DNA of 64,000 bases from a virus: IMG/VR virus record IMGVR_UViG_3300050343_000268, positions 13,057 through 77,056 of that record; one strand, 5' to 3'. Position numbers and translations under genes: made by a program. Position 1 is the first letter of the stretch. Every line of letters begins with the position of its first letter. Positions 8,375-57,646 of this stretch are shown here, piece after piece. Below the pieces are notes generated by a model. The model made no database searches, was not told the DNA's origin, and worked only from the letters and a program-made list of their open reading frames with translations.

Positions 8375-9316
8375 ATGTCAACAGCAAAGCAATCAGGAGA
8401 CTCAGTACGTTCATATTTAAGAGATATTGGACGCATACCGCTCTTAGAGCATGCAGAAGAAATCCTTCTTGGACGCAAGGTCCAACGACTAATGGAGATC
8501 AAAGATCTTGAAAAAGAAATGGAAGTACAAAGTCAAGCTGATTTGGCTGGGATTCTTGGTATCACTACTCTTGAACTAAAACGTCAATTGAGGGAGGGTA
8601 CTAAAGCGAAAGATAAGATGGTGACTGCAAACTTGCGTCTTGTTGTAAGTGTTGCCAAGAAGTATACTAAAAGGAATATGGAGCTTTTAGATATCATTCA
8701 AGAGGGAACAATTGGTTTAGTACGTGGTGTTGAAAAGTTTGACCCTAGCCGTGGCTATAAGTTTAGTACCTATGCTTATTGGTGGATCCGTCAAGGCATC
8801 ACGCGGGCCATTGCGGAGAAATCGCGGGCAATACGCTTACCAATTCACGTTACAGAAAACCTCAACAAGCTTAAGAAAGCTCAACGTGAGCTAAGCCAAA
8901 TCAACGGTGAAATGCCATCCGTGTTCCAACTTGCTGATTACATGGAAATCACAGTAGATGAAATAAAGGATCTGATGTATAAGTCACAACAGCCCACATC
9001 ACTAGAAATAAAGATTGGTGAAAATCGTGATACAGCTTTAATCGATTTACTAGAAGACGAATCTCAACTACCAGACACTCTGCTAAATCGTCAATCAATA
9101 AAAGATAATATAAATGATGTGCTTTCTGAGCTGCCGGAGATGCAAGCAGCCGTGATCAAAATGAGATACGGAATTGGAACAGACATATTAGAACCCATGT
9201 CTATGACAGCAATTGGTCAAGTATTGAATATGAGCAGAGACAGGGTTAGGACAATCGAAAATAAAGCCTTGAAAACAATCCGTGAGTGCTCAAACGGACT
9301 TACTGACCATCTTTAA
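8375..9316 (+). CDS. RpoD/SigA-family (cyanobacterial group 2-like) RNA polymerase sigma factor
   Basis: DSVRSYLRDIGRIPLL (region 1.2), ANLRLVVSVAKKY, DIIQEGTIGL, KFSTYAYWWIRQGITRAI, SRDRVRTIE (4.2); no region 1.1. Confidence 0.95.
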   Translation: MSTAKQSGDSVRSYLRDIGRIPLLEHAEEILLGRKVQRLMEIKDLEKEMEVQSQADLAGILGITTLELKRQLREGTKAKDKMVTANLRLVVSVAKKYTKRNMELLDIIQEGTIGLVRGVEKFDPSRGYKFSTYAYWWIRQGITRAIAEKSRAIRLPIHVTENLNKLKKAQRELSQINGEMPSVFQLADYMEITVDEIKDLMYKSQQPTSLEIKIGENRDTALIDLLEDESQLPDTLLNRQSIKDNINDVLSELPEMQAAVIKMRYGIGTDILEPMSMTAIGQVLNMSRDRVRTIENKALKTIRECSNGLTDHL

Positions 9317-10796: not shown

Positions 10797-11132
10797 TCAA
10801 ATATTAGTGGAGCTCTTGTGACGATAATCATCATTAATAGAAAGCCATTTAAGATTTTGAACATGATTATTCAATTTATTGTTATCAATATGAGTTAGTA
10901 CACAGCACCCCTTGTGTCTACCCATAGGGGTAGGTGGGTTTCCAAGAAAAGCTAGAGCTACAAGAGTATGCACACAAACTTGCTTCTCACCTTTTTGCCC
11001 TAATCTCTGCTGAAGTACTAGTTTTCGATAACCATTTTTTGTAATGTCGAAGTCACTTATAGCCGTCACGAGAACTATTTAGCATTCAAATCCAGGAGTT
11101 ACCCACTCTTGTGTATCAACAAATTCGCTCAT
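10797..11132 (-). pseudogene. NUMOD4/HNH homing endonuclease, broken or mis-sequenced
   Basis: GYRKLVL, VHTLVALAFLG, HIDNNKLNNHVQNLKW; N-terminal MSEFVDTQEWV..PGFE lies in another frame. Confidence 0.75.
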
Positions 11133-13033: not shown

Positions 13034-13068
13034 ATGCCTATAATAAACAAGTGTAGTAAGTCATAGTA

Positions 13069-36876: not shown

Positions 36877-38187
36877 TCAATGTGTATCTTGCCAACTTGC
36901 TCCAGTATCAGCAGCTGCTGTAATCGGCACACGGAACTTGTAATACTGTCCAGCGATAGGAGCAGCTTTAACAAGTAGTTCTGCTACATGATCAGCTTCA
37001 GTTGGTACAACAGAGAGTTGAACTTCATCGTGTACGTAGGCGCAACGGGTGTAGTCACGGTTGTAGGTAAGCCCTGCTTGGTTAAGCAAGTCTTGCCCAA
37101 CTACCACCCAACGCTTGCTGAGTATGGCTCCACATGACTGGAGTAAATAGTTGAGTGACGCATGCTCTGCGCGACAGAAAATAGGGCGGCCATCGAGGCC
37201 CCTAAGACGACCGGTATCACGGACTTTTTGTTTAACAGCATCGATAAGTGGCTCCAAACCAGGAATGGCGTCAAGGAATTTGCGTCGCAGCTCTTGACCT
37301 AGCTGCTTCTTCTGTGGGTCGGACAGCTCAGGGCTGAGGCTGTGCCCCATCTTCACGTCACCAGCGCCATAGATAAACGCATAGGTGAGCGTCTTGACTT
37401 CCTTACGTGTGCAACCCACACGGTCTGCGTTCTGCTGATGAATATCACCGTTAAGGACAACGTCAGCAAAGGCCCCCTCATCAAAGACAGATAGGTAGTG
37501 CCCCAACGCCCGAAGTTCCAGGCCTTCCAAGTCAGCCCCGACCATGACGTGGCCAGGGTGCGGAATAAACAGCTGCCGCGCCCACGGTGCAGATACAACT
37601 TGGCCCAGGTTGGGACCACGGTGTGCGTTCCTCCCGGTCTGCGTAGCGAGGCTGCAGCTGTGATGGATGCAGTTGTCATGCTCAATAGTGTTGAACCAGG
37701 AGTTAGCACCTTCAGACAGCTGCCCTAGCCACTTCTGCAGATGTGAATAGACGTATGAACATCTCGCACTCTTCATGCAGCAGTTCGTTCTTTTGCTGCA
37801 GTGCAAGGTCACGGATCTCAGCTAGGCAAGCTTCATCAACCTTGAGGCTTACCGCTAGGTCGGTGAGCCGTGTAAAGCGAGCACCACGGAAGGTGCTGTA
37901 GCGCCCATGACAATGTTCAGTCTGCTAGTGGGATTGAAATCAAGCAGCTTAGTGAAAGGTGCACCAGCTACATAGCCCTTTAGCTTTGTTCTGTCTCTTA
38001 GGCGTAAAGACTTTGCCTGGCACATAAGGGAAGCGCTTAAGATAATTGCTGCTTCTAGGTCCTGCATCTCAGCAGAGAGTTCGTTGCGTACACGTTCTGC
38101 AGCTTGTACATCAAAGCGGAAGCCTGATGCTTCTTGCTGAGACATGATCTCAGCCATACGCATTTCAAGATGTACACAATCAAGCAT
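36877..38187 (-). CDS. Family A (T7-like) DNA polymerase, polymerase domain only; indels at 37750-38040
   Basis: TQTGRNAHRGPNLGQV, motif A ADLEGLELR, motif B RKEVKTLTYAFIYGAG, motif C YVHDE. Confidence 0.92.
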
Positions 38188-38419
38188 TGTCAGGTTTCTC
38201 CTTATTGAATCCGAATTTTTCAGTCACTTCTTTTTCGCGTTCGTCTGCTCGCTTCTTCTGTGCAAGCTTCGCTACATTCTCCATGATCTTGAGAGAATCT
38301 TCAACTGTTGTTTCATCAGGCATAACAGCACGTACTACTGAAAAGAGTTCATAAAACTCTTTAGCAGCAACTTGCATCTCTTTTTTAGTTAATGGATCAG
38401 TTTTCTTAGGCATAATCAT
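38180..38419 (-). CDS. Small protein inserted between exonuclease and polymerase genes
   Basis: 79 aa helical ORF overlapping both neighbours by a few bases. Confidence 0.6.
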   Translation of the reverse strand: MIMPKKTDPLTKKEMQVAAKEFYELFSVVRAVMPDETTVEDSLKIMENVAKLAQKKRADEREKEVTEKFGFNKEKPDNA

Positions 38420-38934
38420 TCATCCTGCGGAGCATGAGCTCATATAGTTTTACGGTAACTTCTGTATCTTGAATACAGTAGTCAAGCATTTCTGGGGTGT
38501 AAACATCCCAAGCAGCTTCGTGCTTACCGAAGTCACCTTTGAAACACTTAAGGCGATAGCCCCATGCCTCTAGGCTATGACGGCCATAGAGCTTTTGTGG
38601 CATACCGATTGGCCGACGTTCGTGATCACGGTCAGCAATGTGTGGATAGAACAGACTGACTAAGAACAAGAGTGTCGATGACTTGACCTTGATAGTCAAA
38701 GTCGTATGTCTCTTTAATTAGAGGAATGTCATAGCCAATAATATTGTGTCCAATAAGTACATCAGCTTGGCGTAGGCTTTCAATGCCATCATCAAGATCT
38801 AAGCGCGGAGCATCCCACACAAGTGGCTTGTCAGATTGACTTAAGTCACGTGCAACAATGCAATGAATTTTAGAACCACGACGCAAGAGGCCAGTAGATT
38901 CAAGGTCAAATAGAAGTGCTGTTGTTGTTTTCAT
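38406..38934 (-). CDS. 3'-5' exonuclease domain of the split DNA polymerase (indel near 38660)
   Basis: ExoI FDLES, ExoII GHNIIGYD, IDTLVLS, HSLEAWG, ExoIII YCIQD; own stop codon. Confidence 0.88.
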
Positions 38935-39493
38935 TGATTTGTTCGTCATATTGTGAAGCATCGAAACTGCTTGATTCTGTCGGGCTATGCGTGTAGAGAT
39001 CTTTGTCTTGGAATTGTTGTTCCCTGTCATCGAATCTAGGAGCTTGATTGTTGTTTTCAAAGCGTTCGTCTGCATCGTCAAATAGTGGTTCAATGGATAT
39101 AAAAAGTTCTCGTGCTAATCGTGCTGCACGTCTAAATTCGTCCTTGTAATAAGGCTCCCATTCGTGAGCTAGGACGATAATTTTGCGAATGCCCATCAGA
39201 TAAAGCTGAAAGACGGACGCAGAGAATGGGTATCGTGTCGAGTAAATAACTGCACCAGTGATAGGTGTGCCACGTTTACAGGCAGTGGCAATAGCATATG
39301 TAATGCAATCCAGCTCTACTTTGCAGTCAGCCAGAATACTTCTACCATCACCGCAAATCTCTCGATCACGGATAATTACACATCCACCAGGAGCAATAGG
39401 GTGAGTACTGCCAGTAGATACTTGCTTGGCAAGATCCATAAAGTATTTATCCTTGTTTTTGATAAAGGTTGGGTCTGACTTTGGTGCAGGCAT
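38906..39493 (-). CDS. dCMP-deaminase-fold protein lacking catalytic residues
   Basis: YFMDLAKQVS..GCVIIRD; HAE replaced by DCI and PCxxC by PFSAS. Confidence 0.75.
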   Translation of the reverse strand: MPAPKSDPTFIKNKDKYFMDLAKQVSTGSTHPIAPGGCVIIRDREICGDGRSILADCKVELDCITYAIATACKRGTPITGAVIYSTRYPFSASVFQLYLMGIRKIIVLAHEWEPYYKDEFRRAARLARELFISIEPLFDDADERFENNNQAPRFDDREQQFQDKDLYTHSPTESSSFDASQYDEQINENNNSTSI

Positions 39494-39543
39494 ATCTCAC
39501 ATATTGAGTCGGTTGTTTCTATATTAGATAAGTGAACTAATAA

Positions 39544-39897
39544 ATGAGACATATGGATTACGGCAAGTTCAAAAAAGAATATGACGAATTTGAGGAATAT
39601 AATATGAATCGCATGCCATATGAATCAATTAACAAAAAATCCTTGGCCTGGCTTGATGTTCGTAATAATTATGGCAAGCAAGATATGGTCAACAGTCCAG
39701 CTCATTACACACGAGGCAGTCAGGAAGTCATTGACATTATTGAGCAAGCTATCACTGATGCACCTGGTAATACAGAAGGATATCTACAAGGCCAAGCGTT
39801 GAAATATCTGTTGCGTGTATGGCTTAAGGACAACCCTAAGCAAGACTGTGAGAAAGCGGTCTGGTATTTAAATCGACTTATCGATAAACTCGACTAA
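39544..39897 (+). CDS. DUF3310 (T7 gp1.7-like) protein
   Basis: DMVNSPAHY..EVIDII..GYLQGQALKY..QDCEKAVWYL. Confidence 0.85.
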   Translation: MRHMDYGKFKKEYDEFEEYNMNRMPYESINKKSLAWLDVRNNYGKQDMVNSPAHYTRGSQEVIDIIEQAITDAPGNTEGYLQGQALKYLLRVWLKDNPKQDCEKAVWYLNRLIDKLD

Positions 39898-39903
39898 CAA
39901 ATG

Positions 39904-39919
39904 GCCGGCGTTAGCCGGC
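39904..39919. repeat. CCGG-N6-CCGG hairpin, copy 1
   Basis: GCCGGC-GTTA-GCCGGC. Confidence 0.85.
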
Positions 39920-40341
39920 TAACATCGTTGAAAGTAAAGGTCACCGTCTGCATGTGAGAGAGATTCAAACTCTTGAATATGGGGGCGGATTTTTTCTAAC
40001 AAGGTTTTAGTGTCTATAGAGGCGTGTTTGAAAGTACAGGCATAGCCTTGAGAGAATGGTATGTGCTGATGAATTGGTATGTACCACATTAAAGGAATAA
40101 GGCAGTCCCAAGGCTCAAGACCCTGTGATGCCCAACAATTAAGCTCTTCTAACCGAGCTGCCGTCTTAATAATATGAGCTTCATGTGCTTCAGATTCAGG
40201 TATAAATAATTCATTATATGGAGAAACGATAGCATGCCTCCACATTATGGTTCCATCTCTATGTATTAAACGACAGGGATGAACTTGGTTACCAGAAGGT
40301 AAGTTATAAAGAGACGCTGGCGAAAGATGCTTAACCATCAA
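39919..40341 (-). CDS. Peptidase M15-like protein lacking Zn ligands
   Basis: IPES..IIKTAARLEEL..LMWYIP..FSQGYACTF resembles M15 SWYR..SxHxxGxAAD. Confidence 0.5.
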   Translation of the reverse strand: MMVKHLSPASLYNLPSGNQVHPCRLIHRDGTIMWRHAIVSPYNELFIPESEAHEAHIIKTAARLEELNCWASQGLEPWDCLIPLMWYIPIHQHIPFSQGYACTFKHASIDTKTLLEKIRPHIQEFESLSHADGDLYFQRC

Positions 40342-41008
40342 ACGTTACCTTTACGCTCTTCGTAATATTCAAGATCTCTTTGCCAAGAATCACCAGTAAA
40401 CTCATTTAATACTACTCGACCGATATCACGAAAACTATTATAGAAAAGTGAAACTTTGTCTACAGAGGTAATCGTCACATCTACTGGTGGTCCATAGATA
40501 ATAAGGTTCCAGGTTGAAGGGCAGACTGGTTCAAATCCTTTGGCAGTAGCCCTTAGCTGTTTAATACGTTTGAATGGAATACAGAAGGGATAGTCAAGCA
40601 AAGCGGGTGCTGCTCGTAGAATCTCAGATGCATTAGTGAAGAAAACAAAACTATTGATATGGTGATTACGATACTCATTAATTGTTTTATTCAGCCAGAT
40701 GCGAGTTGTACGTACAGCTCCTTTTGGTGCGACAAACACATTCCCATGCCAGTGTTCCTGTAATGGGTTAGCTTCTACAGACGGTACAGAAGTAGCATCG
40801 ACAAGCACTTGTTGTACAGGGTCAGAAGTAGGATCAAAGTCAATTGATCCCATGACAGTACGTGCACGTTCAATGATTTGAGGGGTGGGTATAACGGGAG
40901 TTTTAATCCAGAAGCTTTTAGCTTATCCGCTAAATTCTGCTGTGATCGCTCTGAGGCTTTCTTGGCCCCCTCCTGCTTCGAGACTAAATGTTCTTGTTCC
41001 AGCATCAC
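40338..41008 (-). CDS. Phage N6-adenine DNA methyltransferase-like protein with NPPY replaced by APKG (indel near 40887)
   Basis: TPQIIERARTVMGSIDFDPTS, WHGNVFVAPKG, DYPFCIPFKRIK. Confidence 0.7.
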
Positions 41009-41345
41009 TGATCAATGTAATTAATACGTTTTTAGACCAGTCATTCTCGTCAATTTCCTCAAGCAGTGAACGCAAAAACTCCACAATTTCTGTATCCTCT
41101 TCGCGTTCAGCAGAGACTAAATCAGATTCAACATCATGGCCTGACATATATGTTGTGGAGTCGTTAACTAAATTGATGACTAAGGAGCCGGCACCTGAGG
41201 TTTCAACTCCATTCATAGCAACGTTGATTAAGTCTGTAAGAATAAGTTCAGCAGTAGCAGCCAAAAACTTTTGTTCATTGGTTTTTTCTTCGCCGAATTT
41301 ATCGGATTGAAGAAGTTGCTGAAGTAAATCTGTACGTCTAGACAT
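40923..41345 (-). CDS. Hypothetical acidic protein
   Basis: 140 aa ORF. Confidence 0.6.
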   Translation of the reverse strand: MSRRTDLLQQLLQSDKFGEEKTNEQKFLAATAELILTDLINVAMNGVETSGAGSLVINLVNDSTTYMSGHDVESDLVSAEREEDTEIVEFLRSLLEEIDENDWSKNVLITLISDAGTRTFSLEAGGGQESLRAITAEFSG

Positions 41346-41377
41346 AATTGAATGACTCTTTGTTTAGGATAAGTAAT

Positions 41378-42193
41378 TTAAAATTCTTCTGTGGGGTTTT
41401 CATCGTTTTCCTCGTTATCAGTTGGAGCACGAAACAAACCAGGATTAGAAGGTTCTGTTTGAGAGATATGTTTGCCAGCTAAAATATCGGTCATAACAGC
41501 TTCAAACCTATCAACATACTGCGTGTTTGGATCTAGCAAGAGCGCTGCCCTAGCTTCGATTTCAGCAGTATCATCTTTCTTCTGCTCCTCTTTAATTGCT
41601 TCTTCAATTACATATTCTTGTACTTGTTGACGTAACGTGTGTAATTGACAAGCTAGTTCAAAGGAATCGACGTAACTGTCTTGATCTACAAATACTCCAA
41701 CGTGTTGAGGAATCAGATGGAAAGGGTTGCAGCAATACTTTTCACCACAGGTAGTCTTTACACCAGTAAAACCTAAGTCTCCCCATGTGAACCACATAGC
41801 TACACGTTGTGGGTGATGTTGAGTTGAGGTAGAGATACCAGGCCTGCGCCATGCAAACTGAGGCTGCTTGGTTCTAGGATTTACTACTCCGTTCCACATC
41901 CAGCATTCGTCTGGTTGACCAATATCAACTTGTGACCAAAACTTGAGTGCTTTATTCCTGTATTTTTTCATCAAGCGATCAATATCAAATGACAACATGC
42001 CTTCCCTTGCGGAGCTTACGCATCGCACACAGGCCTGATGGCTGTCATAGCGCATTGAGTGAGAACTAAATCTACCAAGAGAGTGACCACTGTAGATACA
42101 CAGTTCGCCTTCTTCAGCAGTATTGGACATTTGCAAATGGCGTCTACCGTAAGCATGTCCTCCTCTTCGTTTATTAGGTTGAGCTTCAGCCAT
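41378..42193 (-). CDS. HNH-endonuclease-like protein lacking the catalytic His
   Basis: KFWSQVD..DECWMWNG, PQRVAMW (for AHR), VKTTCGEKYCCNPFHL (for VxHxCDNxxCVNPxHL). Confidence 0.65.
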   Translation of the reverse strand: MAEAQPNKRRGGHAYGRRHLQMSNTAEEGELCIYSGHSLGRFSSHSMRYDSHQACVRCVSSAREGMLSFDIDRLMKKYRNKALKFWSQVDIGQPDECWMWNGVVNPRTKQPQFAWRRPGISTSTQHHPQRVAMWFTWGDLGFTGVKTTCGEKYCCNPFHLIPQHVGVFVDQDSYVDSFELACQLHTLRQQVQEYVIEEAIKEEQKKDDTAEIEARAALLLDPNTQYVDRFEAVMTDILAGKHISQTEPSNPGLFRAPTDNEENDENPTEEF

Positions 42194-42430
42194 TTAGTTC
42201 TCTGATTTGGTACTAGCAAACGTGCCGCCCAATGCTGGGTATTGATCATCGGCTGGCAATGCAGTCAATTGATGGTTAATCATGTATTCATAACGTGTGC
42301 TATTTTCATACTTTATACGAACAAGTTTAGTGTTGGGGGTGTAGTACTCAGGCTTACCTACAACAAGCGCTGTCATGTCATTAGAAGACACACGTACCCG
42401 CAATCCAATCTGAATATCTGATGATTTCAT
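42194..42430 (-). CDS. Small SH3/KOW-like protein
   Basis: DIQIGLRVRV..ALVVG..VRIKY. Confidence 0.5.
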   Translation of the reverse strand: MKSSDIQIGLRVRVSSNDMTALVVGKPEYYTPNTKLVRIKYENSTRYEYMINHQLTALPADDQYPALGGTFASTKSEN

Positions 42431-42450
42431 TTATAAAAAATATATAGTGT

Positions 42451-44674
42451 TTAAAAGTCGTTGAGAATATGATCGTCAGTTAATGGATCGTCAGTAGGAC
42501 GAATCCATAGTCGAACTGATTTAACCTTATTCGTAACAGGATCTTTGCGTGAAGTGTTTAATCGTCTCCAGCCAAGTGTTTGTAAAACATCAGCTACTCG
42601 ACGAGCTTCGCGTCGTCCTTGCTGCCTGGGGTCAAGGTCAAGTGCTTTGGTAAGAACCTCAGCAGCTGAAACCTCTTCTTTCAGACTGACGTAATGACTA
42701 ATCTTTTCCATCCAAGGATCTGGATCGCCAAACTCTTGGATGTACTCAGCGATCTGAGCGATCTCACCGCTATTGAATTCATATGAATTGCCATCACGAT
42801 AAGCTTGAACAGCTGATGCCCATAGGGAATCACGTTCTTCACTAATCTGCTTCCAAGGAATTAAGAAGCCGCTGCCGATCTCAAGAGGTACAAAGCGGCG
42901 ATTGCCTGTACTATCAACGAGAAACTGGTTACGATTAGTCGTGCCAATCATAACAAAGCGACGAAGTAGTCGCTCAGGAAGACTAGCATATGGTCTTCTT
43001 ACTTCATCACAACGTGTTGTAATTAGGTTCTTGAAGTTCTCAATGTTGCGTGATTGGAAGAAGTGGTCAATCTCAGGGAGCTCTAGCAACCAAGCAACGT
43101 GCAACCTGTATTGCTCTTTCATTAAGGTCTCTAATGGAGTAGAGACTTCAGCAAAGAGCTTCTCAGGGACAAGACTACGGCTAAACATTGACTTACCTAC
43201 ACCTTGAGCACCAACTAAGATTGGGAGCCAGGACATAGAACAGCCAGGGTTATAAGCACGAGCTACTGCACCAATCATCATGCGCTGCATGGCAAGCGTT
43301 GACAGATGATTTTTGTTGCCTAAGAACACTTCACCAATACGATCCCAATCTTTATGTGGGATGGCGTGAGCGGAGCAAGAATCCAAGTAACGTCTAATAG
43401 GGCAGTACCTGTTCTTACCAGCTGCGTATTGAATGGCAGCTTTTATACGCTGCTTCAGGAATAAAGACTCCGTGCTCGCAAGCAAGCTTGGTAGTCATTA
43501 AGTCAAGGTCATTACCCTCTAGCTCAATGGTTTTACCATTAGCGTCGTCATATTCAATTGCCCCTGTAAGTTCGTTCTTACGAAGGTTAGTCAAAATTTC
43601 TTTGACCTTTTTTACATCGTCTTCGCGCTCTTTAGCAGCATCACTGCCTGAACGCTTGGGTCTACCTTTTGTTCTTTTAGCTTGAGAAGCATCAGGTATG
43701 GGCTCAAATTCAGGATCCAATTTCACCTCCAGGTTATTAATTACATCATCAAAGTTTGGTAGAGCATCAAATTCTATGTAGCCTACCGCCGATCCAACAG
43801 CACCAAAGCGTAACTCTGGCGGTAATTGTGATGACCAACTACTGCTTTGTCTTTTTGCTAGTGAGTATAACTTAGCAGGTCCACTATGATTACCGAGACC
43901 GCGCCATTTAAATGGTTGAATATTCTCACGTTTCTCGCCGTGATGTCCACGCAATACCCAGTCAACCCAGTCATCAAACACAGGCTGACCAATAGCTGCA
44001 CAGGCAGCCATAACAGGTACATAGCGAGTTTCATACTCGCCATCTTCTGATGGTACTAAGAAGTTTCTTAGTAACCACTGACAACGCTTGATGTCTGCAT
44101 CAGTTACGTCTGAAGCAACAAAGTCTGTTGGATCATCGTAATCAATGTCAGTTAGCAGAAACTCAGGGACTAATGCATCTGCATTGATAAGCCATTCAGC
44201 CTTGGTGTTGCCATACCAAAGCCGCTCAGGCTTCTGTCCGCAGTTATCTTTGATTGTCTCAATACCAAGGTCAGCAAATAGTCTGTTGACTACAAGCCAG
44301 TAAGCACCGCGATGCTGTGACGTGGTCTTAAGTTCTAGCTCAAGGGGAAACAAAGCACGGAACCTGTGCTCTGATTCGGTATGACTAGCAGTGGTATAAG
44401 TAGCAACACACCAGTTACGGGCAGTATCTGTATTCCAAAATGCATCGAGGGTAGTGTCGCCATCGATATCTACAACAACTAAGTTGCTGCCTGATGCATT
44501 ATCAACACGTCTGTGCCTGCCAACAAAATGAGTGGCGCACCAGCCATAGCCAGCTTCCACCCATCCTCGTAGCCATGTGAGACTTTCTTCAATGTTTAAC
44601 CAGCCCTGAGCTGGTTGCTTTTCTTTGTTGCGGCAGTCTTTATGAACTGCAATCCGCAGCTTCATTATTGTCAT
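42451..44674 (-). CDS. Primase (PriCT-2-containing) fused to VirE/VapE-type helicase; indel near 43450
   Basis: VVDID, YTTASH..HRFR, KPERLWYG; Walker A GAQGVGKS, ELPEID, GTTN, DSTGNRRF. Confidence 0.85.
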
Positions 44675-45416
44675 CCTCTGGATATAGTTCGTGGAACATT
44701 TTTGCTCTTTTTAAAAAGCGTGATTCATAGAGTTCAAGCTGGTCTCCATCAATGAAGATCGCTTGAGTTGTCTCTTCAGTGGCTACCAAAATCAGTGCCA
44801 CGTCACATAGAAACCCGACACGCTCGTTCAATGCGTATCGATATGCAGCCATCTGCTGCGCACACTTTTGAAACTTTCTCCATCCGCCATACCCGACACG
44901 ATCACCTCTGTCTGGTGAAAAGGCGGAGTATGGGCCATTGCTGGTTTTGAAGTCAGCAATTACTTTTACACCACCAATCTCTCCAATGAGATCAGGGCAT
45001 CCAGCAAATAAATGTTCAGTACTCCAGACATATGCGACTTCTTTGTCATCACTACGTAAGTTATTCCAGTCAGGGCGAAGTGGTCGCTCAGACCAATGAA
45101 TTGTATCAAACCAATCTAGGTATTGGGATAACCCATTCCAAAATGGTTGATATTCTTCAGGTACTCCTGGATCTAACCCACGTAGATAATTTTCACACCC
45201 AAGGTGAATAGCAGTGCCACGTGTCGCAGCAGCTTCTAGCGCACCTGGGTTTTTGTCCTGCCACTGCCGCAAGCCTGCTTTCGACTTTTCACTTTCAGTA
45301 CCTGAAAGGACGGTCGTGACTGACGGCATGTAGAGACCCGAACATAGATATTTGCGGTGTCCTGCCGACGTCTGTATACGATAAGGCTTATCATGAGTGG
45401 TTGAGTTTGTCATCAA
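44640..45416 (-). CDS. PD-(D/E)XK exonuclease
   Basis: PSVTTVL, RGTAIH, GCPDL, ADFKTS, QMAAY. Confidence 0.85.
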   Translation of the reverse strand: MMTNSTTHDKPYRIQTSAGHRKYLCSGLYMPSVTTVLSGTESEKSKAGLRQWQDKNPGALEAAATRGTAIHLGCENYLRGLDPGVPEEYQPFWNGLSQYLDWFDTIHWSERPLRPDWNNLRSDDKEVAYVWSTEHLFAGCPDLIGEIGGVKVIADFKTSNGPYSAFSPDRGDRVGYGGWRKFQKCAQQMAAYRYALNERVGFLCDVALILVATEETTQAIFIDGDQLELYESRFLKRAKMFHELYPEDDNNEAADCSS

Positions 45417-45799
45417 TAATCTGATTCTTGTTCTACGCTTTGTGCAAAGTTTTGACTGTACGTTGGGCCTTGGCTAAATTCCTGCCCTTGAGCATTGCTT
45501 TCGGGTGACGGTTGAAACATTTGATATAAAGTCCCCACTGCCTGACCAACTGCATCAACAACATTTGAATTTGCATCAAGTTGCTGTTTTAATTCATTCA
45601 CTTCTTGGCGAAGTGCAATGATGTGATCCATCAAGGAAGGTGGCTTAACTACCTGTGGTTGTTGTGCAGCAACTGGTGCTGGTTGAGTTGGTGCAGCTGG
45701 TGCGTTATCTCCAGGCACTTGTCCAGCCATGATTTGAGCCAGACGAGCTTGCATTTCTGGAGGTAGATTTTGTAATGCAGGTGAAATTGGTTGAGACAT
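45413..45799 (-). CDS. Hypothetical Q/P-rich coiled-coil protein
   Basis: 128 aa ORF. Confidence 0.55.
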   Translation of the reverse strand: MSQPISPALQNLPPEMQARLAQIMAGQVPGDNAPAAPTQPAPVAAQQPQVVKPPSLMDHIIALRQEVNELKQQLDANSNVVDAVGQAVGTLYQMFQPSPESNAQGQEFSQGPTYSQNFAQSVEQESDY

Positions 45800-45801
45800 A
45801 A

Positions 45802-46542
45802 TTAAAATTCAGTATTATCTTGTTCTGGTGCTTGGCTAGATACAGTTGGTGCAACTACAGCGCCTCGCTTATCTTGTCCGCCAGCCGGGAGACCTTTTTC
45901 GTCAGTTGAACGTCCATCAAAAGGATCCTTTCCTTCAAAGAAGTTGGGGAGCCAAATACTATCTCGTGAGGTCTGCCATTCCTTAATAATTTTCTCCGGT
46001 ACTTTACGTACCTTTGGAAGGATTGAATATGTAGTTTCCAACCCAGCTCCCTTACGGCTGATTTTAATCGAAAAGTTTGCCAAACCTTCCTCTGTCCAAG
46101 TGTAATCTTCAATTTCTTGAAGGACTTCTGTAAGTTGATCACGGATTGATTTCTGCTCAATGAATAAAACTTCTAATCTTCCACGAGTTGCTGAGGTAGC
46201 AACCCATGCAAGGAAACGACGGGGCTTGACATAACTTCCATCGATTTTTGGTCGATCTGGTTTGGACCAGTCGGTCTCACGGGCAATGTCAGCAGGAGAA
46301 CCAGGGTGGCTCCTAGTAACGACGTAGCCATTAAAACGGAGGTCACCGGTCTTGGGATCCTTGATTTCTGATGCGTACTGCCATCCAGTGATTGCATGTC
46401 CGGTGTCGTAGCATCCAAGCAAACGAAATTCTTCGGATTCTCCATCTTTAAGTGAGCTAGGTTTCCAGTATGGTTGTGCTTCTTTAGTTTCAATTTTATC
46501 TTTAGTTTCCAGTAATTCTGGAGGTAGGACTTGAAGTGTCAT
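45802..46542 (-). CDS. Probable ssDNA-binding/annealing protein
   Basis: LKDGESEEFRLL, IKISRKGAGLETTYSILP, acidic/Phe C-terminus; beside the exonuclease. Confidence 0.6.
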   Translation of the reverse strand: MTLQVLPPELLETKDKIETKEAQPYWKPSSLKDGESEEFRLLGCYDTGHAITGWQYASEIKDPKTGDLRFNGYVVTRSHPGSPADIARETDWSKPDRPKIDGSYVKPRRFLAWVATSATRGRLEVLFIEQKSIRDQLTEVLQEIEDYTWTEEGLANFSIKISRKGAGLETTYSILPKVRKVPEKIIKEWQTSRDSIWLPNFFEGKDPFDGRSTDEKGLPAGGQDKRGAVVAPTVSSQAPEQDNTEF

Positions 46543-46607
46543 TATTTATTATTAGTAGACTCTTCAAATGTAAGATATATAATATATAAATGTGAGCTCC
46601 AGTAATT

Positions 46608-46919
46608 ATGCGATTAGCAGGTATATTTGCCGAACAATTAGGCACCCCTCTCCATGTATCAGCGGCAGATGCACCAATTAATTATGGAGTAATTGGAAGT
46701 GAAATAGGTCACACAGCTGGGGTACTCGATGGATTAAAAGAATATGGCAATGCACTATTGTCTCCTTTTACTGGTGGGTTTAACCAACCATTAGGAGAAA
46801 CAGATCTCTATGGACGCAACCCAGATGGTTCTGGAAGATCAATGGGTGAAGCAATGGAATACATAGAAAAAGGTGTTAGAAACCGTGAGGATGCCGTAAG
46901 AATGCTGTTAAAAAAGTAA
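46608..46919 (+). CDS. Hypothetical protein
   Basis: 103 aa ORF with upstream TATAAT. Confidence 0.5.
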   Translation: MRLAGIFAEQLGTPLHVSAADAPINYGVIGSEIGHTAGVLDGLKEYGNALLSPFTGGFNQPLGETDLYGRNPDGSGRSMGEAMEYIEKGVRNREDAVRMLLKK

Positions 46920-46978
46920 GCATCTATAAATGAAGCGGTTAAGGGTATCTAATCGCTTCATACTCATCTATTAAAAAA

Positions 46979-46994
46979 GCCGGTGTTAGCCGGC
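46979..46994. repeat. CCGG-N6-CCGG hairpin, copy 2 (followed by T6 on - strand, terminator-like)
   Basis: GCCGGT-GTTA-GCCGGC. Confidence 0.85.
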
Positions 46995-47001
46995 AATGGT
47001 T

Positions 47002-47662
47002 TTAATAGTCAGGTGTTGGATCAACTTCGGTATATCCTGCTGCTGAACCACTTGATTGTGGATTAGTTGACTTTCGCGGTTGTTCTTGACGTGTGCTGAA
47101 ATCGGTTGCAACGATTGCGCGATATGGACTATCGGAATCATCTTTACGATATTCACGGATATAGCCTTGTACACAAATAGCGCGACCTTTACGCACACGA
47201 TCAGTAAGTTTTTTAAGGCGTGACTCGTGCGCTTCAAGATACAGCCAAGTTGTCACACTAGAGTTGTCTAGTGTTGTTCCAATCTTGACTGCGACTGTAC
47301 CATTCTTGCGTTCTTTAATTTCATCACTACCAAAGAATGCATTACCAAGAACGACTTGGTTGCAGTACATATCTTGAGGGATATTAGTTTCAATAGTCGT
47401 AACAATTAGATCTAGTGGCTTGGCAGTATCGTCACTGAAAACGATATTACCGGTAATCAATGCACGTGTACCTGGCTTCCAACCTTGGAACGTTGTAAGT
47501 TTTGCACCTGCCCTGTCATAGCAGAGGAGCCTGAGTTTAACTTCTGATCCACTGCTGCCAGCGGGCACCACAGCGTCAGCACCCCTATAGTCCAACCCAT
47601 AAGCGTTGATCGGATCATTAATTGGGCGATTTGAATTCAACGGTTGCTGCTATAAAGTTCAT
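47002..47662 (-). CDS. ssb: Tandem OB-fold single-stranded DNA-binding protein (indel near 47630)
   Basis: NQVVLGN, TTWLYLEA, RKGRAICVQGYIREY, acidic tail. Confidence 0.7.
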
Positions 47663-49380: not shown

Positions 49381-49722
49381 TCAATCATCATTTGTTTCTC
49401 CTGTTTTAATTTTTCCGTATAGATTTGGGCGTACATTGCCGTAGCCAGATCTTATATCTAATACACTACCGTTTTGTGATTTAAGTTTATCGTGGTAGGC
49501 ATCAAATATGTCAACCTTAGTGTAGCCACGTACAGCGTCATATAGAGTCTTGCCACCTAATACATACATAACAATGTGTATATCAGTTGGCAAGCCTTTG
49601 TCGTCAAATAGATCTGGGTTTATTTCTTGTGCGTGTACTTGGATTTTATTTAGTTCTTTAGCTGTAAATTGAAGCATTAATAGCTTATGCGTATTGAGGT
49701 AGGTTTTGGTTGGCAGTCTCAA
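49381..49722 (-). CDS. Hypothetical protein
   Basis: LPTDIHIV..DAVRGYTKVDIFDAYHD..YGNVRPNLY. Confidence 0.55.
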   Translation of the reverse strand: MRLPTKTYLNTHKLLMLQFTAKELNKIQVHAQEINPDLFDDKGLPTDIHIVMYVLGGKTLYDAVRGYTKVDIFDAYHDKLKSQNGSVLDIRSGYGNVRPNLYGKIKTGETNDD

Positions 49723-50428
49723 AAAACGCCGGCATTCTGCTAGCTCTAGTGTCTGCTAGTCCAACAGCTTTCCCTGATGTGTAGAGGCTATCCGAACATC
49801 CCATCCAGAAGTTTGACGAGAGATGTTTGTGATCAGCTTCCCCTTTGAGGGATTGAAGAGTCCAAGCAATCGTAGCTCTTCTAAGCTTATCGAGCTCTTT
49901 GTCAGTCTTAAGACCGAGCTCTTGGCAGACGATTGTGTTCGCCGCGACGTGTGTTGTTTCGTCCCGGCTAATATCTGCAGAAGTGGTGCGTAATCCTGTA
50001 TCTCCGAGGAATCGGAATATGGGCAGGAGCACGAAGAACACAGACCGTTCGAGGACGACTGCTTTGAGAACAGGGTGCCTGTCAAGTTCGAGCCACGCCT
50101 TAGTAATGCGAGCAGCTTCCTTCTCAAATTGAGCGGGGATCTTATGTGCTTCAGCCGCGAAATTAAGGGCAATGTCATGCTTTTCCTCATCTTTTACGTT
50201 AGATAACAGCAGCTCTCTACAGCCTTCAGCTTCAGTGCCTTGTGGCAGCTCGCCTTTCATAGCCTGTGAAATAAAATCTCCAACTGGGATTTCTAGGCTC
50301 CGCAAAGACAGTGCTCGTTGCACTGCTTCTTCACCACCAGCTAATAGCTGACCAGCAGATACTTGAACTGGGGTCCATGTACGCTTGCGCTGATGAAGGT
50401 GGATGTATTTAGTAGCTGCTTTGGTCAT
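49685..50428 (-). CDS. nrdB: Ribonucleotide reductase small (beta, ferritin-like) subunit
   Basis: WTPVQ, LRSLE, DEEKH, VLERSVFF, DISRDETTH; adjacent to the alpha subunit. Confidence 0.8.
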   Translation of the reverse strand: MTKAATKYIHLHQRKRTWTPVQVSAGQLLAGGEEAVQRALSLRSLEIPVGDFISQAMKGELPQGTEAEGCRELLLSNVKDEEKHDIALNFAAEAHKIPAQFEKEAARITKAWLELDRHPVLKAVVLERSVFFVLLPIFRFLGDTGLRTTSADISRDETTHVAANTIVCQELGLKTDKELDKLRRATIAWTLQSLKGEADHKHLSSNFWMGCSDSLYTSGKAVGLADTRASRMPAFFETANQNLPQYA

Positions 50429-50446
50429 TTCAATATGTTGTTAGGT

Positions 50447-51868
50447 TTACTCTGCACAACCCACACACATAGTGGGGTCGCTGAACACGTCGTAATTAGG
50501 CGTTGATTCGTCTGTCTCATTAATGTCAGAGAAGTCAAAATCAAACTGATCATCTAAGGCAACCATGGCATCATCTTTGGCTTGAGTATTTTGCATTACT
50601 TGAAGTGAGTAATACATACTTGTTTGCGGTGATGACAACCACTCATCCACAAAATGATCGGTGTAAGTAATTACATCGCTCCATGTGTTGTAGCTGTAGC
50701 CGTGACATAGATTTGTACGCATCAGCATTTCCATGATGCCATCGACAACTTTTTTATAGACATCCCAACCAACTTGGTCTGCTGTCTCAACGTTGCCGTA
50801 GTCGTAATGTTCTACGCCAAATGTGGAGCTGTCCCTATCAACCTGACGCCCAATCGGTGGTGCGATTTCGGGTGCAGTTGTATAGCCTGCTCGGTCCTTG
50901 TAGCGGTATGAGCAAGAAGCTGTCGGTGCAATCGCAAATGCTCGGTCCATGTTGGCGGACTTTGCAATATCTGATGCAGCGTCAATCCCTTCCTGAAGTG
51001 CTTTTACAATCTTAAGGGCTTCAGGAGTCACTAAATAATCTGCATCTGCATACAGATGATGGTTCAATGCTTCAGCAAATTGTGAATAGCTAACCTCTTC
51101 CAGTGCAAGGAGATTGGCAAGCCCAAGCATGCCTAAACCGACTTGACGATCATCTTCTTGAGAAAGATACTCGCCAGTTTTCTCAACACCAGTTTTGCCA
51201 TGGAGTTCGATCAGTTCAGTCATTCCTGTTGAGAATGCACCGACAATATCTTCTGGCCTACAGCCGCCAAGGTTTATGTGCTCCAGCAAGCAGGTACCAC
51301 GGCTCTTTAGGAAGACTTCAAGACATACATTCGCGTAGATACGCTCGCCTTTGCCGTCATTCCGAATCTTAGCTAGCCAGATATCTCCACGTGAGATCCC
51401 TTTAAGGATTGCATTACGTACTTCTTCACTAGCATCTTCCCACATTTTTTCGTTGAGATTGATGCATCGTTTAGCCCATGGAATCTCATGGCGTGGAGTT
51501 TCAATAAACTCAAGGATATCTGCATGAGACAAATCTAGGTGGAGGACTACTGCACCATTTTTATATACACCACCGCGACGCAGCTGCTCATTTAGGCAGG
51601 AATAAATCTTGCCAAACGAGACAGGACCAGAGGCTACTAACCCTTTGCCGTTATTTTCACCAGCAGGACGTAACTTGCTTAGATGAACTGCAACGCCTGC
51701 ACCGTACCTAAGGCCATGACTGACATAACGCCAGCTAGCTTCAATACCGTTAGGCCCTTCCATGCTGTCATCTACAACAAATACCGTACAGCTAACTGGT
51801 AAGCGGCTGGTAGGGTTATCAATCCAGTTCTGAACACGGCCAGTCCGTGCAATGAGACTATTTTCCAT
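50447..51868 (-). CDS. nrdA: Ribonucleotide reductase large (alpha) subunit, compact cyanophage type
   Basis: PVSCTVF, ASGPVSF, RRGG, NVCLEV, AIAPTASCS, SMYY, C-terminal CVGCAE. Confidence 0.9.
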   Translation of the reverse strand: MENSLIARTGRVQNWIDNPTSRLPVSCTVFVVDDSMEGPNGIEASWRYVSHGLRYGAGVAVHLSKLRPAGENNGKGLVASGPVSFGKIYSCLNEQLRRGGVYKNGAVVLHLDLSHADILEFIETPRHEIPWAKRCINLNEKMWEDASEEVRNAILKGISRGDIWLAKIRNDGKGERIYANVCLEVFLKSRGTCLLEHINLGGCRPEDIVGAFSTGMTELIELHGKTGVEKTGEYLSQEDDRQVGLGMLGLANLLALEEVSYSQFAEALNHHLYADADYLVTPEALKIVKALQEGIDAASDIAKSANMDRAFAIAPTASCSYRYKDRAGYTTAPEIAPPIGRQVDRDSSTFGVEHYDYGNVETADQVGWDVYKKVVDGIMEMLMRTNLCHGYSYNTWSDVITYTDHFVDEWLSSPQTSMYYSLQVMQNTQAKDDAMVALDDQFDFDFSDINETDESTPNYDVFSDPTMCVGCAE

Positions 51869-52298
51869 GGGTATCGTAATCAATAATTGTTGGTCGTGGG
51901 AAACATTCAGCTAAGTCAGGTGGTTGATAGTTAGGTCCTTTCAATACCTTGCCATCGGCTCTGAAGATAGCTTTTCCTTGTTCATCTAGTTTACTAAGAT
52001 TGGACTCCATTACGAGGTCCATTGCTTTATCTAGATCAAGATTAAAAGCAGCAGCAAACTGATAACACACAAAGACAAGGTCGGATAACTCTTTAAGAAG
52101 CTCGTGCCTTGTTTCTTGATTCTCTGGGTCAGCAAAGACTTCATCAGATGCATCTAAAAACTCCCTTGCTTCTTCAGTGATAAGACCCACTTGCATGTCC
52201 CATAGTTTCTTTTTAATGAAGCCATAGCGGGAGATATTGTCTAGTGATTCTTGTTGGAATACTTCACGGAATTGCCGTGCTTGTTCTAGTAATGTCAT
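51858..52298 (-). CDS. MazG-like NTP pyrophosphohydrolase
   Basis: LITEEAREF, KELSDLVFV, SNLSK, DGKVLKGPNY. Confidence 0.85.
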   Translation of the reverse strand: MTLLEQARQFREVFQQESLDNISRYGFIKKKLWDMQVGLITEEAREFLDASDEVFADPENQETRHELLKELSDLVFVCYQFAAAFNLDLDKAMDLVMESNLSKLDEQGKAIFRADGKVLKGPNYQPPDLAECFPRPTIIDYDTHGK

Positions 52299-53348: not shown

Positions 53349-54655
53349 TCATGCTTTAGTTCCATCTGTGTAATAGAAACCGCCTAAGCAGTTACTAGAG
53401 TTAGATACAATTACGTTCCTGTTATGCATATAGGAACGCATACCATGATGATACACGAGCATGACAGGTTCGCCAACATTAACTGTATCAAGTCTTGAAC
53501 ACAAGATAGTTTTAATTGCTGGCTCTTTACGCTTGTATTGCATCTCTGCTTCATAAGCAAGATGTTCGGTTTCTTCCAATGTGGTTGAGTTAAACACAGC
53601 TACCATGTGCGGCTCAGACACAGGAATAGCTTCCATCTCAGTGATGTATGGGTTCATTTGTTTGAGGAAGTTTTGTTGAAGGTAATAATGATTTGGTCTT
53701 CTGATTCACGGTTGGAATGCAGGACTGAGACACGCCTCCAATCTCCATTGAGTATGGAGGCAATGTTATTCAGTTGCGTTTCAACGATGACTGCTGTTTC
53801 AGCATCAGTCATTAGCTCTCAAAACTAATGGTTAATAACGCGGCATCGTCAAGAAGCTGTTCACGGACAACTCCGCTGTCAACATCAGATCCACGAAAAT
53901 GATACTCAGCTACATTTTCAAGGTAGTAATTGATTTCATTTTGGACATGTTGATCAAGTGATGCCATAAGAAACTTACGGAAGTTTCTCTTTTGAACTGA
54001 GTTGAGTGTCATAAGCTGTCAGTAATGATGGACTGTGCTGCTGCGTTAGAGCTTGCTTCGTTAGGACGAACAAGTTTCAACGGAGGCAGATACTTTTTCT
54101 CAGCAAGGTAGACTTCGACTTCTTCTCGCATTCCAGGATATTTAAAAGCGTCAAGACGCCCAAGTATCTCGTTGATATAGAACGAAGGAAGCTCTGGTGA
54201 GTCTTGGGCCAATGCCGCGTGGCACAGGCATACGAGGTCGAGCAATTCATAATCAGGAACTTTAATTGTTGTTGACATTTAGTAGCTCGTAGTATTCATC
54301 AGGATTTTCAGCAAAGTGATCAAGCATTACAAGCAAAGTTGCAACAGTTGTTTCGCTGGGTTTGATTGGCAAGTTAAGGAGTACAGCAGTTAAATTTCTG
54401 CGCACATTCCGCAACCTGCCGACAGTGTCAGCTGTCATCTTCTTCGATTTCTTTTTTAGAGATGTTTAATTTGGTTTTTGCATAATGGCTTACCACTTCG
54501 TCTACAACGTCTTCTAGATGTTCTGTGTCGAACCAATCTAAGGACATTGAGCAAACGGAGCGGCGTGTAGCCATATTCATTGCAGGGTAGTTTTCTACTA
54601 AATATTCATCAATATTAAAAGAAAACTCCCGATCGTAATCAGGATTTGCAGGCAT
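53349..54655 (-). other. Run of small hypothetical early genes (53349-53657, 53812-54012, 54009-54278, 54428-54655 and shorter ORFs)
   Basis: Abutting short co-oriented ORFs; no recognisable motifs. Confidence 0.55.
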
Positions 54656-55320
54656 CAGAACTCTGTAGTGTCGTTAGCTTGCTCAGTCACATCAATGACT
54701 TGAGGTAGCTCTAGGGGAGCGTCTCCACCTGCAAGCTGTGCACTGATGAGCTCTACGGCATCACGCATGATTGCGTCAGTCTTGAGCTTGTCTTTGTCGC
54801 TACGTGCTTGAGCGAGTGCTTCATAAGTATCGTCGTGCGTAACTTTGACAGCACCGTCACGAACTGCAGCAAAGCAGGGACGCATCTTGGAAGTACCTTT
54901 CCAAGTGTCGATAGTGATGAGGTGGTCAAGAGACTCGTTAGCACAGAGACCCATGAGGCAAGTCATCAGGCACTGTGACCAGATGGTTGCAAGACCAGAG
55001 GTAAGCATCAAGGATGTACCATTCTGTGTCTTAAGAAAAACATTGAGCTTGCTGCCGTTGAAGCCAGTGTCTTCGTAGACATTGTCAATGATGGTGAGGC
55101 CAGTAAGAAATACTTGGCCGATACGAGTGCAAGGCTTACCTGATGCCTCCATCAGTGCAGTCTTTTGCTCATCACCTTGGTATTGGAAGAAGACAGCATC
55201 GCTGTCCTTAACCAAGCCAACGCCAATCATAAAGTCAACAGACTGTGAAGCTTGTCCGCCAAGTTCGGCGATAAGTGCAGAGGTGTCGGCAGTAGGATTA
55301 GCAGTTGAAATAACAGTCAT
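54655..55320 (-). CDS. Hypothetical protein
   Basis: 221 aa; acidic tail ending TTEF, similar to the putative SSB. Confidence 0.6.
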   Translation of the reverse strand: MTVISTANPTADTSALIAELGGQASQSVDFMIGVGLVKDSDAVFFQYQGDEQKTALMEASGKPCTRIGQVFLTGLTIIDNVYEDTGFNGSKLNVFLKTQNGTSLMLTSGLATIWSQCLMTCLMGLCANESLDHLITIDTWKGTSKMRPCFAAVRDGAVKVTHDDTYEALAQARSDKDKLKTDAIMRDAVELISAQLAGGDAPLELPQVIDVTEQANDTTEF

Positions 55321-56557: not shown

Positions 56558-57646
56558 TTAGCCGATAGATGGTGCAACTAGGGCCACAGGTGTGGAGCTA
56601 GTTGACGCAAGATCGAGCGGGAAGTTGTGAGCGTTACGTTCGTGCATGACTTCCATTCCGAGACCTGCTCGGTTGAGGATGTCTGCCCAGGTGTTAACGA
56701 CGTGTCCATCGGAGGACTGGATTGATTGGTTGAAGTTAAAGCCATTAAGATTAAACGCCATAGTACTTACGCCCAAGGCAGTAAACCAGATACCAACCAC
56801 AGGCCAGGCAGCGAGAAAGAAGTGCAAGCTACGACTGTTATTAAAGGAAGCGTACTGAAAGATAAGGCGACCAAAGTAGCCATGAGCAGCCACAATGTTA
56901 TACGTCTCTTCTTCTTGCCCAAATTTATAGCCATAGTTTTGTGATTCTGTTTCAGTTGTCTCGCGAACGAGTGAGCTTGTAACCAAGCTTCCGTGCATAG
57001 CAGAAAACAAACTACCGCCAAAGACACCAGCCACCCCAAGCATGTGGAAAGGGTGCATGAGAATATTGTGCTCAGCTTGGAATACCAACATGTAGTTGAA
57101 TGTTCCGCTGATTCCGAGGGGCATTGCATCAGAGAAAGAACCTTGACCGAATGGATAAACAAGGAACACTGCAGTTGCTGCAGCCACGGGAGCTGAGTAA
57201 GCAACCATGATCCAAGGGCGCATACCTAATCGATAGCTAAGTTCCCATTCGCGTCCCATGTAAGAGAAGATACCGATAAGGAAGTGGAAGACAACAAGCT
57301 GGAAAGGTCCGCCGTTGTACAGCCACTCATCGAGTGAGGCTGCTTCCCAGATTGGATAGAAGTGAAGTCCGATTGCGTTTGAAGACGGGACAACTGCTCC
57401 TGAAATGATGTTATTTCCGTAGAGGAGCGATCCAGCAACTGGTTCACGTATGCCATCGATATCAACAGGAGGGGCAGCAATAAAAGCAATAATGAAGCAT
57501 GTTGTAGCGGCAATAAGAGTAGGGATCATCAGTACTCCGAACCAACCTACGTAGAGGCGGTTGTTGGTACTTGTGACCCACTCAGTAAAGCCATCCCAGG
57601 CTTCCTTAATAGGATTAGCCTTGGGTGAAAGAATAGATGTTGACAT
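56558..57646 (-). CDS. psbA: Photosystem II D1 protein
   Basis: [36 protein letters not shown]; intact and uninterrupted. Confidence 0.99.

Follow-up and report, generated by a model that had tools for sequence, protein, structure and literature searches.

Four neighbouring candidate pseudoenzyme genes in the replication block of a marine cyanophage related to S-EIV1

Results

Four silenced enzyme scaffolds between primase-helicase and polymerase

We analysed 64 kb (positions 13,057 to 77,056; hereafter the window, whose own coordinates are used throughout) of the 77-kb IMG/VR viral contig IMGVR_UViG_3300050343_000268, which has a completeness rating of 97%. Between the genes for a primase-helicase and a family A DNA polymerase lie four genes, here called A to D, whose products retain the scaffolds of four unrelated enzyme folds and have lost the catalytic or metal-binding motifs of each. 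Counting from the polymerase side, these are gene A (38906..39493, 195 aa), which has a CMP/dCMP-deaminase fold according to PF00383, PHROG and profile matches; gene B (39919..40341, 140 aa), assigned to the LAS or M15A/hedgehog peptidase fold from an AlphaFold2 (AF2) model and structure searches; gene C (main part 40338..40853, an open reading frame (ORF) of 171 aa), a homologue of PF05869 Dam methyltransferases identified through phmmer relatives; and gene D (41378..42193, 271 aa), an HNH_3-like His-Me-finger protein identified from PHROG HNH families and by alignment to a PF13392 protein. A first-pass annotation, made from the sequence alone, had described these as four co-oriented ORFs. 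All four do lie on the minus strand, as do all other genes described here unless stated, but the run is interrupted twice: a further gene, E, intervenes between D and C, and a DUF3310 gene encoded on the other strand separates B from A. From the helicase side to the polymerase side, the order is F, D, E, C, B, DUF3310, A.

Gene A matched PF00383 at the borderline (24.9 bits, cut-off 25) and also matched two PHROG dCMP-deaminase families. A profile built from 24 relatives identified the RibD deaminase domain (E 1.5e-5), the dCMP deaminase 2hvv (E 0.0025) and TadA (E 0.02) in the PDB, and pairwise BLASTP with the dCMP deaminase of Dinoroseobacter phage R5C gave an E value of 5e-9. Gene A shares with the CMP/dCMP deaminases 2hvv, RibD and R5C a recognisable N-terminal helix and strand (YFM..A......HP..GGCVIV), and with PF00383 deaminases the spacing of the two motif helices and an (I/V)VVL strand. 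It differs from the PF00383 deaminases in having neither HAE nor PCxxC, and in carrying an additional conserved HEWEPYYKDEFRRAARLAREL segment and an acidic tail of 50 aa. In the alignment with 2hvv, T-H-F-P-C-I-N-C lies over T-R-Y-P-F-S-A-S of gene A and the HAE triplet falls in a gap beside E-I-D-C-V, D-C-I being its counterpart in this register; in the alignment with R5C, H-A-E lies over Y-A-I and P-C-A-D-C over P-F-S-A-S. Because HAE and PCxxC are both replaced, gene A lacks, in either register, all three zinc ligands and the catalytic (proton-shuttle) Glu. We counted such substitutions in 42-85 unique relatives per gene. The PCxxC position of gene A reads YP[FY]S[AT][SA] in 42/42 unique relatives, and 40 of the 42 have D-C or D-P in the HAE region. 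Conserved polar residues of gene A are H31, C38, E60, D62 and H110-E-W-E113.

Gene B had no family match in Pfam, PHROGs, NCBIfam or PADLOC, and tblastn returned nothing significant. In an exhaustive structural search of the PDB with its AF2 model (predicted local distance difference test, pLDDT, 92.9), the top match was the Streptomyces Zn DD-peptidase 1lbu (Z 10.4, root-mean-square deviation 2.6, 105 aligned residues), followed by hedgehog N-domains (ShhN; Z 7.2-7.7), VldE, Ply500, LysB4, DacB, VanXY, VanY, MepA, VanX and the T5 endolysin. In the viral structure library BFVD the top match was 'Peptidase M15A, C-terminal' (E 7.8e-4, TM-score 0.63). Since Foldseek against the PDB alone was weak (E 0.14), we settled the fold from the exhaustive aligner and the viral library. 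Gene B therefore resembles LAS/M15A peptidases and the hedgehog domain across the whole domain fold, including the G-x-A-x-[D] strand, and differs from them in showing no sequence similarity to any family, no conserved His/Asp/His and invariant residues that are located elsewhere. G99-Y-A-C-T103 can be recognised as the counterpart of the LAS signature H-x-x-G-x-A-x-D; the canonical Asp position is unconstrained among relatives (T/Y/I/E), the loop at residues 88-98 has no invariant His (one subgroup only has a His, six residues before G99), and the last strand (134-140) contains no His. This suggests that gene B, as modelled, is without the conserved zinc triad. Among 184 marine homologues, 24 positions are invariant, and the conserved residues off the ancestral site include E54, the invariant H56 (in the long helix) and H106, and the near-invariant H121 and E126.

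Gene C measures 221-223 aa in intact relatives, in which the N-terminal TP motif is included. Even at full length it had no match in Pfam, PHROG, NCBIfam or PADLOC. A phmmer scan of 1.84 billion representatives identified 253 relatives, with E values of 1e-9 to 1e-5 to proteins that pass the Pfam cut-off. PF05869, whose cut-off is 28.1 bits, is passed by those with NPP[Y/G]; the six relatives tested (P0273, P0281, P0293, P0298, P0302 and P0308) scored 37-62 bits. By tblastn, gene C matched an annotated methyltransferase of Alteromonas phage PT11-V22 at 27% identity, and this protein also passes PF05869. Most aligned relatives share TP...M-G-x-I-D-L-D-P-A-S and W-x-G-x-V-F-x-N-P-P-[Y/G], and the motif IV column of true PF05869 proteins reads NPPY, NPPF or NPPGG. 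Gene C resembles PF05869 Dam proteins in length, in the TP...G-x-I-D-x-D-P motif (PTPQ...MGSIDFDPTS in the full-length relative L002) and in the W-x-G-x-V strand that leads into motif IV. Residues R50, G54, I56, D57, D59 and P60 are near-invariant (D57, D59 and P60 over 50 sequences) and are common to true Dam members. However, motif IV is changed from NPP[Y/F/G] to [A/S]PKG and there is no Pfam score. In the clade of the window, motif IV reads V-[A/S]-P-K-G in 68/75 unique sequences (APKG in the window), and 70 of the 75 fit the broader pattern [AS][PSA]KG. The nearest outgroups of this clade likewise have degenerate motifs and no Pfam match. The alignments thus indicate that gene C is without a canonical adenine-binding motif IV, and ligand binding is conceivable because the N-terminal IDxDP motif is retained.

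Gene D had no direct Pfam match. Four PHROG HNH-endonuclease families matched residues 36-163 (E 1.5e-8 to 3e-5), and alignment to Corynebacterium phage StAB gp46 (PF13392, 54 bits) showed that gene D preserves the framework C-W...V-x-[H]-x-C-x-[N]-x-x-C-x-N-P-x-H-L. C97, C149, C154, N156, P157 and H159 are invariant, and the zinc Cys/His residues are kept. The StAB sequence V-R-H-T-C lies over V-K-T-T-C of gene D, placing T147 at the position of the catalytic general-base His, and the upstream A-H-R of StAB gp46 is P-Q-R in gene D. KTTCG[NED]KYCCNPFHL is found in 64/74 unique relatives, and the homologue in Synechococcus phage S-EIV1 has Arg at the catalytic His position. Gene D is thus like the HNH_3 (PF13392) and zf-His_Me_endon homing-type endonucleases, of which StAB gp46 is an example, in its CW.W..G...C....C.NP.HL framework and zinc-binding Cys/His residues, and unlike them in the change of the catalytic His to Thr and of the 'AHR' His to Gln, and in having an extra N-terminal Cys/His region, a long C-terminal helix and an acidic tail; its layout runs from the N-terminal Cys/His-rich region through the His-Me-finger region and the long helix to the tail (...NPTEEF). 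A wide protein search with gene D returned relatives at at least 72% identity only, and a profile search of PDB sequences gave only spurious coiled-coil matches. Protein Atlas returned gene D's own clusters and, as a lead, a language-model neighbour cluster of which 76% is PF13392.

The four enzyme scaffolds proposed in the first-pass annotation were therefore borne out, by profile and sequence matches for A, C and D and by the AF2 model and structure search for B, as was the replacement of a catalytic or metal motif in each (HAE and PCxxC in A, His/Asp/His in B, motif IV in C and the catalytic His in D). Its statement that the ORFs are near full length holds for A, B and D, which are intact in the window; gene C is shortened there by a 1-nt deletion.

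Frameshifts in the window contig

The deletion in gene C lies at 40886, as judged from a contig 99.8% identical, and displaces the N-terminal 41 codons (40886..41008, recognised from intact relatives) out of the frame of the main part. Similar breaks affect other genes of the window. A +1 at 43451 splits the primase-helicase, which is a single ORF of ~740 aa in every relative; the exonuclease ORF has a +1 at 38659 relative to near-identical relatives; nine surplus bases spread over 37740-38040 give the polymerase an in-frame stop at 37855; and unpaired 1-2-nt indels also occur at 47627 and 47725 relative to near-identical relatives. As these indels occur in this contig alone and strike essential genes too, they are probably assembly errors. 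We considered an alternative genetic code for the broken polymerase and rejected it, since comparison with intact relatives shows the breaks to be indels.

Conservation, gene order and selection

The same region is present in >100 IMG/VR contigs, at protein identities of 60-100%. The order F, D, E, C, B, DUF3310, A is identical in 44/44 loci that span helicase to polymerase, although a few of these 44 are the same contig counted twice. In 111/111 loci, the stop of C and the start of B share 1 or 4 nt, and the F-D spacing is kept at -4 to +2 nt in relatives. Pairwise Nei-Gojobori ratios of nonsynonymous to synonymous substitution (dN/dS; pairs with dS 0.05-1.5) were 0.14-0.16 for gene A, 0.11-0.18 for B, about 0.10 for C and 0.07-0.10 for D, as against 0.05-0.08 for the primase-helicase; genes E and F gave 0.18 and 0.19. 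From the dN/dS values, the constant gene order and the kept overlaps, we infer that A-D are functional and that their substitutions are fixed. The first-pass annotation had favoured exaptation over decay, and the selection and synteny checks it named, now carried out (dN/dS 0.07-0.18; one gene order in 44/44 spanning loci), agree with this. None of the outcomes named beforehand as refuting the proposal was seen: the folds were borne out, close relatives do not retain the catalytic residues, and the genes do not evolve neutrally.

Acidic C-terminal tails

Gene D ends in F, Y or I in 71/88 relatives (...PTEEF), and gene A, with its acidic 50-residue tail, in I, L, V or F in 37/42. Over the last 15 residues, the D and A tails carry a net acidic charge of 4-5. 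Other proteins of the phage end in a related manner: the last residue is F in 78/78 primase-helicases (...LNDF), F in 35/35 sequences of p246 (...DNTEF), Y or F in 33/33 of p128 (...ESDY) and Y in 26/26 of p212 (...TPDY), a protein with a weak match to single-stranded DNA-binding protein (SSB) and oligonucleotide-binding (OB) folds; p221 ends likewise (...TTEF). Such a C-terminal end was found in only 8/100 ORFs of the window, five of them at 41378-47640. By analogy, the tails of these replication-block proteins may be a common docking motif. Replication-block proteins with an acidic tail and a terminal F or Y map to 41378-47640 and 54655-55320.

Flanking genes and the remaining members of the block

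The primase-helicase (42451..44674), with an AEP-type primase and a VapE/D5-like helicase, was identified from Pfam and PHROG matches and comparison with relatives. On the other flank is the family A DNA polymerase (36877..38934), which is naturally encoded in three ORFs in relatives, namely an exonuclease, a conserved 79-aa protein (phrog_2171) and a polymerase of 433-442 aa (L013:11066-13308; L029:11350-13442), and is broken further by indels in the window contig. Some relatives have an ORF of 540-590 aa directly downstream of the polymerase (L051:13423-15138, L062:12082-13797, L111:12076-13836), which is absent from the window.

Within the block, the DUF3310 gene (39544..39897, plus strand), whose domain carries a PHROG label associated with 'nucleotide kinase', occurs between B and A in every spanning relative and does not count among the four. 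Gene E (40923..41345) encodes a conserved, very acidic protein of 140 aa, and gene F (42194..42430), packed against D, a conserved protein of 78 aa. Neither belongs to a family that we recognised: E and F had no match in Pfam, PHROGs, NCBIfam or PADLOC, and Protein Atlas gave no usable match for E. In all relatives (111 loci), the last part of E and the first part of C share 80-92 nt, read in different frames (40923-41008 in the window); conserved overlaps are seldom this long. Gene F ends in ...GGTFASTKSEN in the window, while F is the last residue in 63/69 relatives, and the C-terminus of gene F in the window may be altered or extended.

The host phage

The window encodes psbA (photosystem II D1; 56558-57646), both subunits of a class Ia ribonucleotide reductase (49685-51883), a sigma factor (8375-9316) and a terminase. 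The polymerase shares 49% identity with its counterparts in T7-like cyanophages. The only cultured phage with a matching 755-aa virion protein (45% identity) is the 79-kb S-EIV1, which also has the best match to gene D; megablast of the region against cultured phages gave no match. From the S-EIV1 matches together with psbA, ribonucleotide reductase and the sigma factor, we assign the phage by sequence to the marine relatives of cyanophage S-EIV1. Marine genomes grouped with S-EIV1 are reported to form a genus-level cyanophage cluster that accounted for 3.3% of cyanophage reads in one survey (PMC5332604).

In the structural region, a 93-aa open frame has a near-threshold match to PF13392 HNH_3 (24.1 bits, cut-off 24.8) at 10830-10973 on the minus strand, and may encode a small, possibly active HNH endonuclease.

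Discussion

The reading that we favour, with moderate confidence, is that A-D are exapted pseudoenzymes specific to the lineage of S-EIV1-like marine cyanophages, which now serve as non-catalytic binding or accessory proteins. The ancestors would be a CMP/dCMP deaminase for gene A, an M15A/LAS zinc peptidase for B, a PF05869 Dam methyltransferase for C and an HNH_3 His-Me-finger nuclease for D. Because the catalytic residues are lost while strong purifying selection holds the genes, we propose that the proteins work by binding rather than catalysis. The ligand of gene A might be a pyrimidine nucleotide or a partner oligomer, and that of B a peptide or protein; C might bind S-adenosylmethionine (SAM) or DNA by way of the N-terminal IDxDP motif that it retains, and D might bind DNA with its intact zinc-stabilised His-Me finger. 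No description of such a system was found in Pfam, PHROGs, NCBIfam, PADLOC or the literature searched.

The tails suggest where these proteins may act. The tails of T7 gp4 and gp2.5 and the tip of bacterial SSB dock on the polymerase or other partners, and the D and A tails resemble them in having an acidic stretch and a hydrophobic or aromatic last residue, an arrangement also seen on the phage's own helicase-primase and SSB-like proteins. The proteins are not homologous to T7 gp4 and gp2.5, and the likeness to these is an analogy. As the D and A tails resemble those of the helicase and the SSB-like proteins, we favour a role for A-D as accessory, non-catalytic parts of the phage replisome or of the nucleotide-supply machinery, which would not require that they form one complex.

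Several observations weigh against the view of A-D as exapted accessory proteins. Many phage early proteins have acidic C-termini, and the gene A tail ends in an aliphatic rather than an aromatic residue. The AF2 model of gene D, built from 19 close relatives, was unusable (mean pLDDT 45.7, with the HNH region <50), and its fold is thus assigned from sequence alone. The catalytic residues of gene B were mapped by matching motifs and aligned ranges to M15 structures, not by residue-level superposition. The new clusters of conserved His, Glu and Cys residues in A and B could form alternative active sites. The accessory role, the binding and the partners are a best guess by analogy. Finally, A-D do not travel together outside the lineage of the window. 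S-EIV1, the only cultured relative, has only the D-like gene, near its primase, and searches of that genome for A and B found neither, while the Alteromonas phage has, of the four, only a C-like gene. The earlier suggestion that the four constitute one functional module is therefore not supported by this distribution.

The decoy, sponge and sensor functions raised in the first-pass annotation are speculation. In the counter-defence form of this idea, which we consider unlikely, the dead scaffolds would imitate host or defence enzymes, and would poison oligomers of a defence deaminase, soak up SAM or a signalling nucleotide, or occupy the target sites of nucleases or methylases. Retention of the IDxDP motif of C and the zinc site of D would suit a sponge or decoy, and the extreme acidity of the neighbouring gene E recalls DNA mimics. 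A search of the phage's own genome with PF00383 and PF05869 also turned up no active paralogue, deaminase or Dam, that these proteins could regulate, a weak test since the loose first filter missed gene A too; on this result, any enzyme partner would have to come from the host. However, A-F showed no similarity to PADLOC defence proteins at E <= 0.01, and they lie in a core replication block of constant order in all spanning relatives with very low dN/dS. Genes for counter-defence tend to be variable, patchily distributed and quick to evolve.

It is rather improbable, in our judgement, that A-D are still enzymes whose active sites have moved or whose chemistry has changed, so that 'dead' would be a misreading. 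In favour of this, purifying selection is about as strong as on the helicase, and the new polar clusters (E54, H56, H106, H121 and E126 in B; H31, C38, E60, D62, H110 and E113 in A) offer candidate sites. In some B relatives the Asp position is occupied by Glu, and many true PF05869 relatives have NPPGG rather than NPPY, which indicates that motif IV is flexible in the family. Against this, motif IV of gene C is missing its N/D/S as well as its second Pro, the ancestral Asp position of B is unconstrained, A is without the three zinc ligands and the proton-shuttle Glu, and in D every relative has Thr where the general-base His would be, with Arg in S-EIV1. Four losses are also more parsimonious than four catalytic reinventions in adjoining genes.

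A bolder extension of the accessory role, which we regard as a long shot, is that the block F-D-E-C-B-(DUF3310)-A encodes a polymerase-docked, multi-subunit assembly made almost entirely of exapted, silent enzyme folds, tethered by the tails, that senses nucleotides or SAM or shields replicating DNA. We modelled C with B, a pair chosen because their genes overlap in 111/111 loci, and the complex prediction score of 0.00 was uninformative either way. If such an assembly exists, it would represent a novel type of accessory to the phage replisome, or of hub for counter-defence.

Decaying pseudogenes or artefacts of poor assembly can practically be set aside: the window contig does have frameshifts, one of them in C, but the indels are contig-specific and fall in essential genes as well, as sequence error would, intact full-length genes with the same substitutions are present in >100 independent contigs, and decay was rejected on dN/dS (0.07-0.18), synteny and the fixed dead sites.

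Pseudoenzymes are well known in eukaryotic signalling, but few have been catalogued from phages. In this cyanophage lineage, which is abundant in the ocean, the core replication block retains four neighbouring genes for unrelated folds that appear silenced, under constraint almost as tight as that on the helicase. One consequence is that the labels 'dCMP deaminase', 'methyltransferase' and 'HNH endonuclease' which annotation pipelines would place on relatives of these genes are probably functionally wrong. The ligands of A-D would show how phages recycle enzyme scaffolds, and could reveal new replisome factors or new ways in which nucleotides, SAM or host defences are handled in cyanobacteria.

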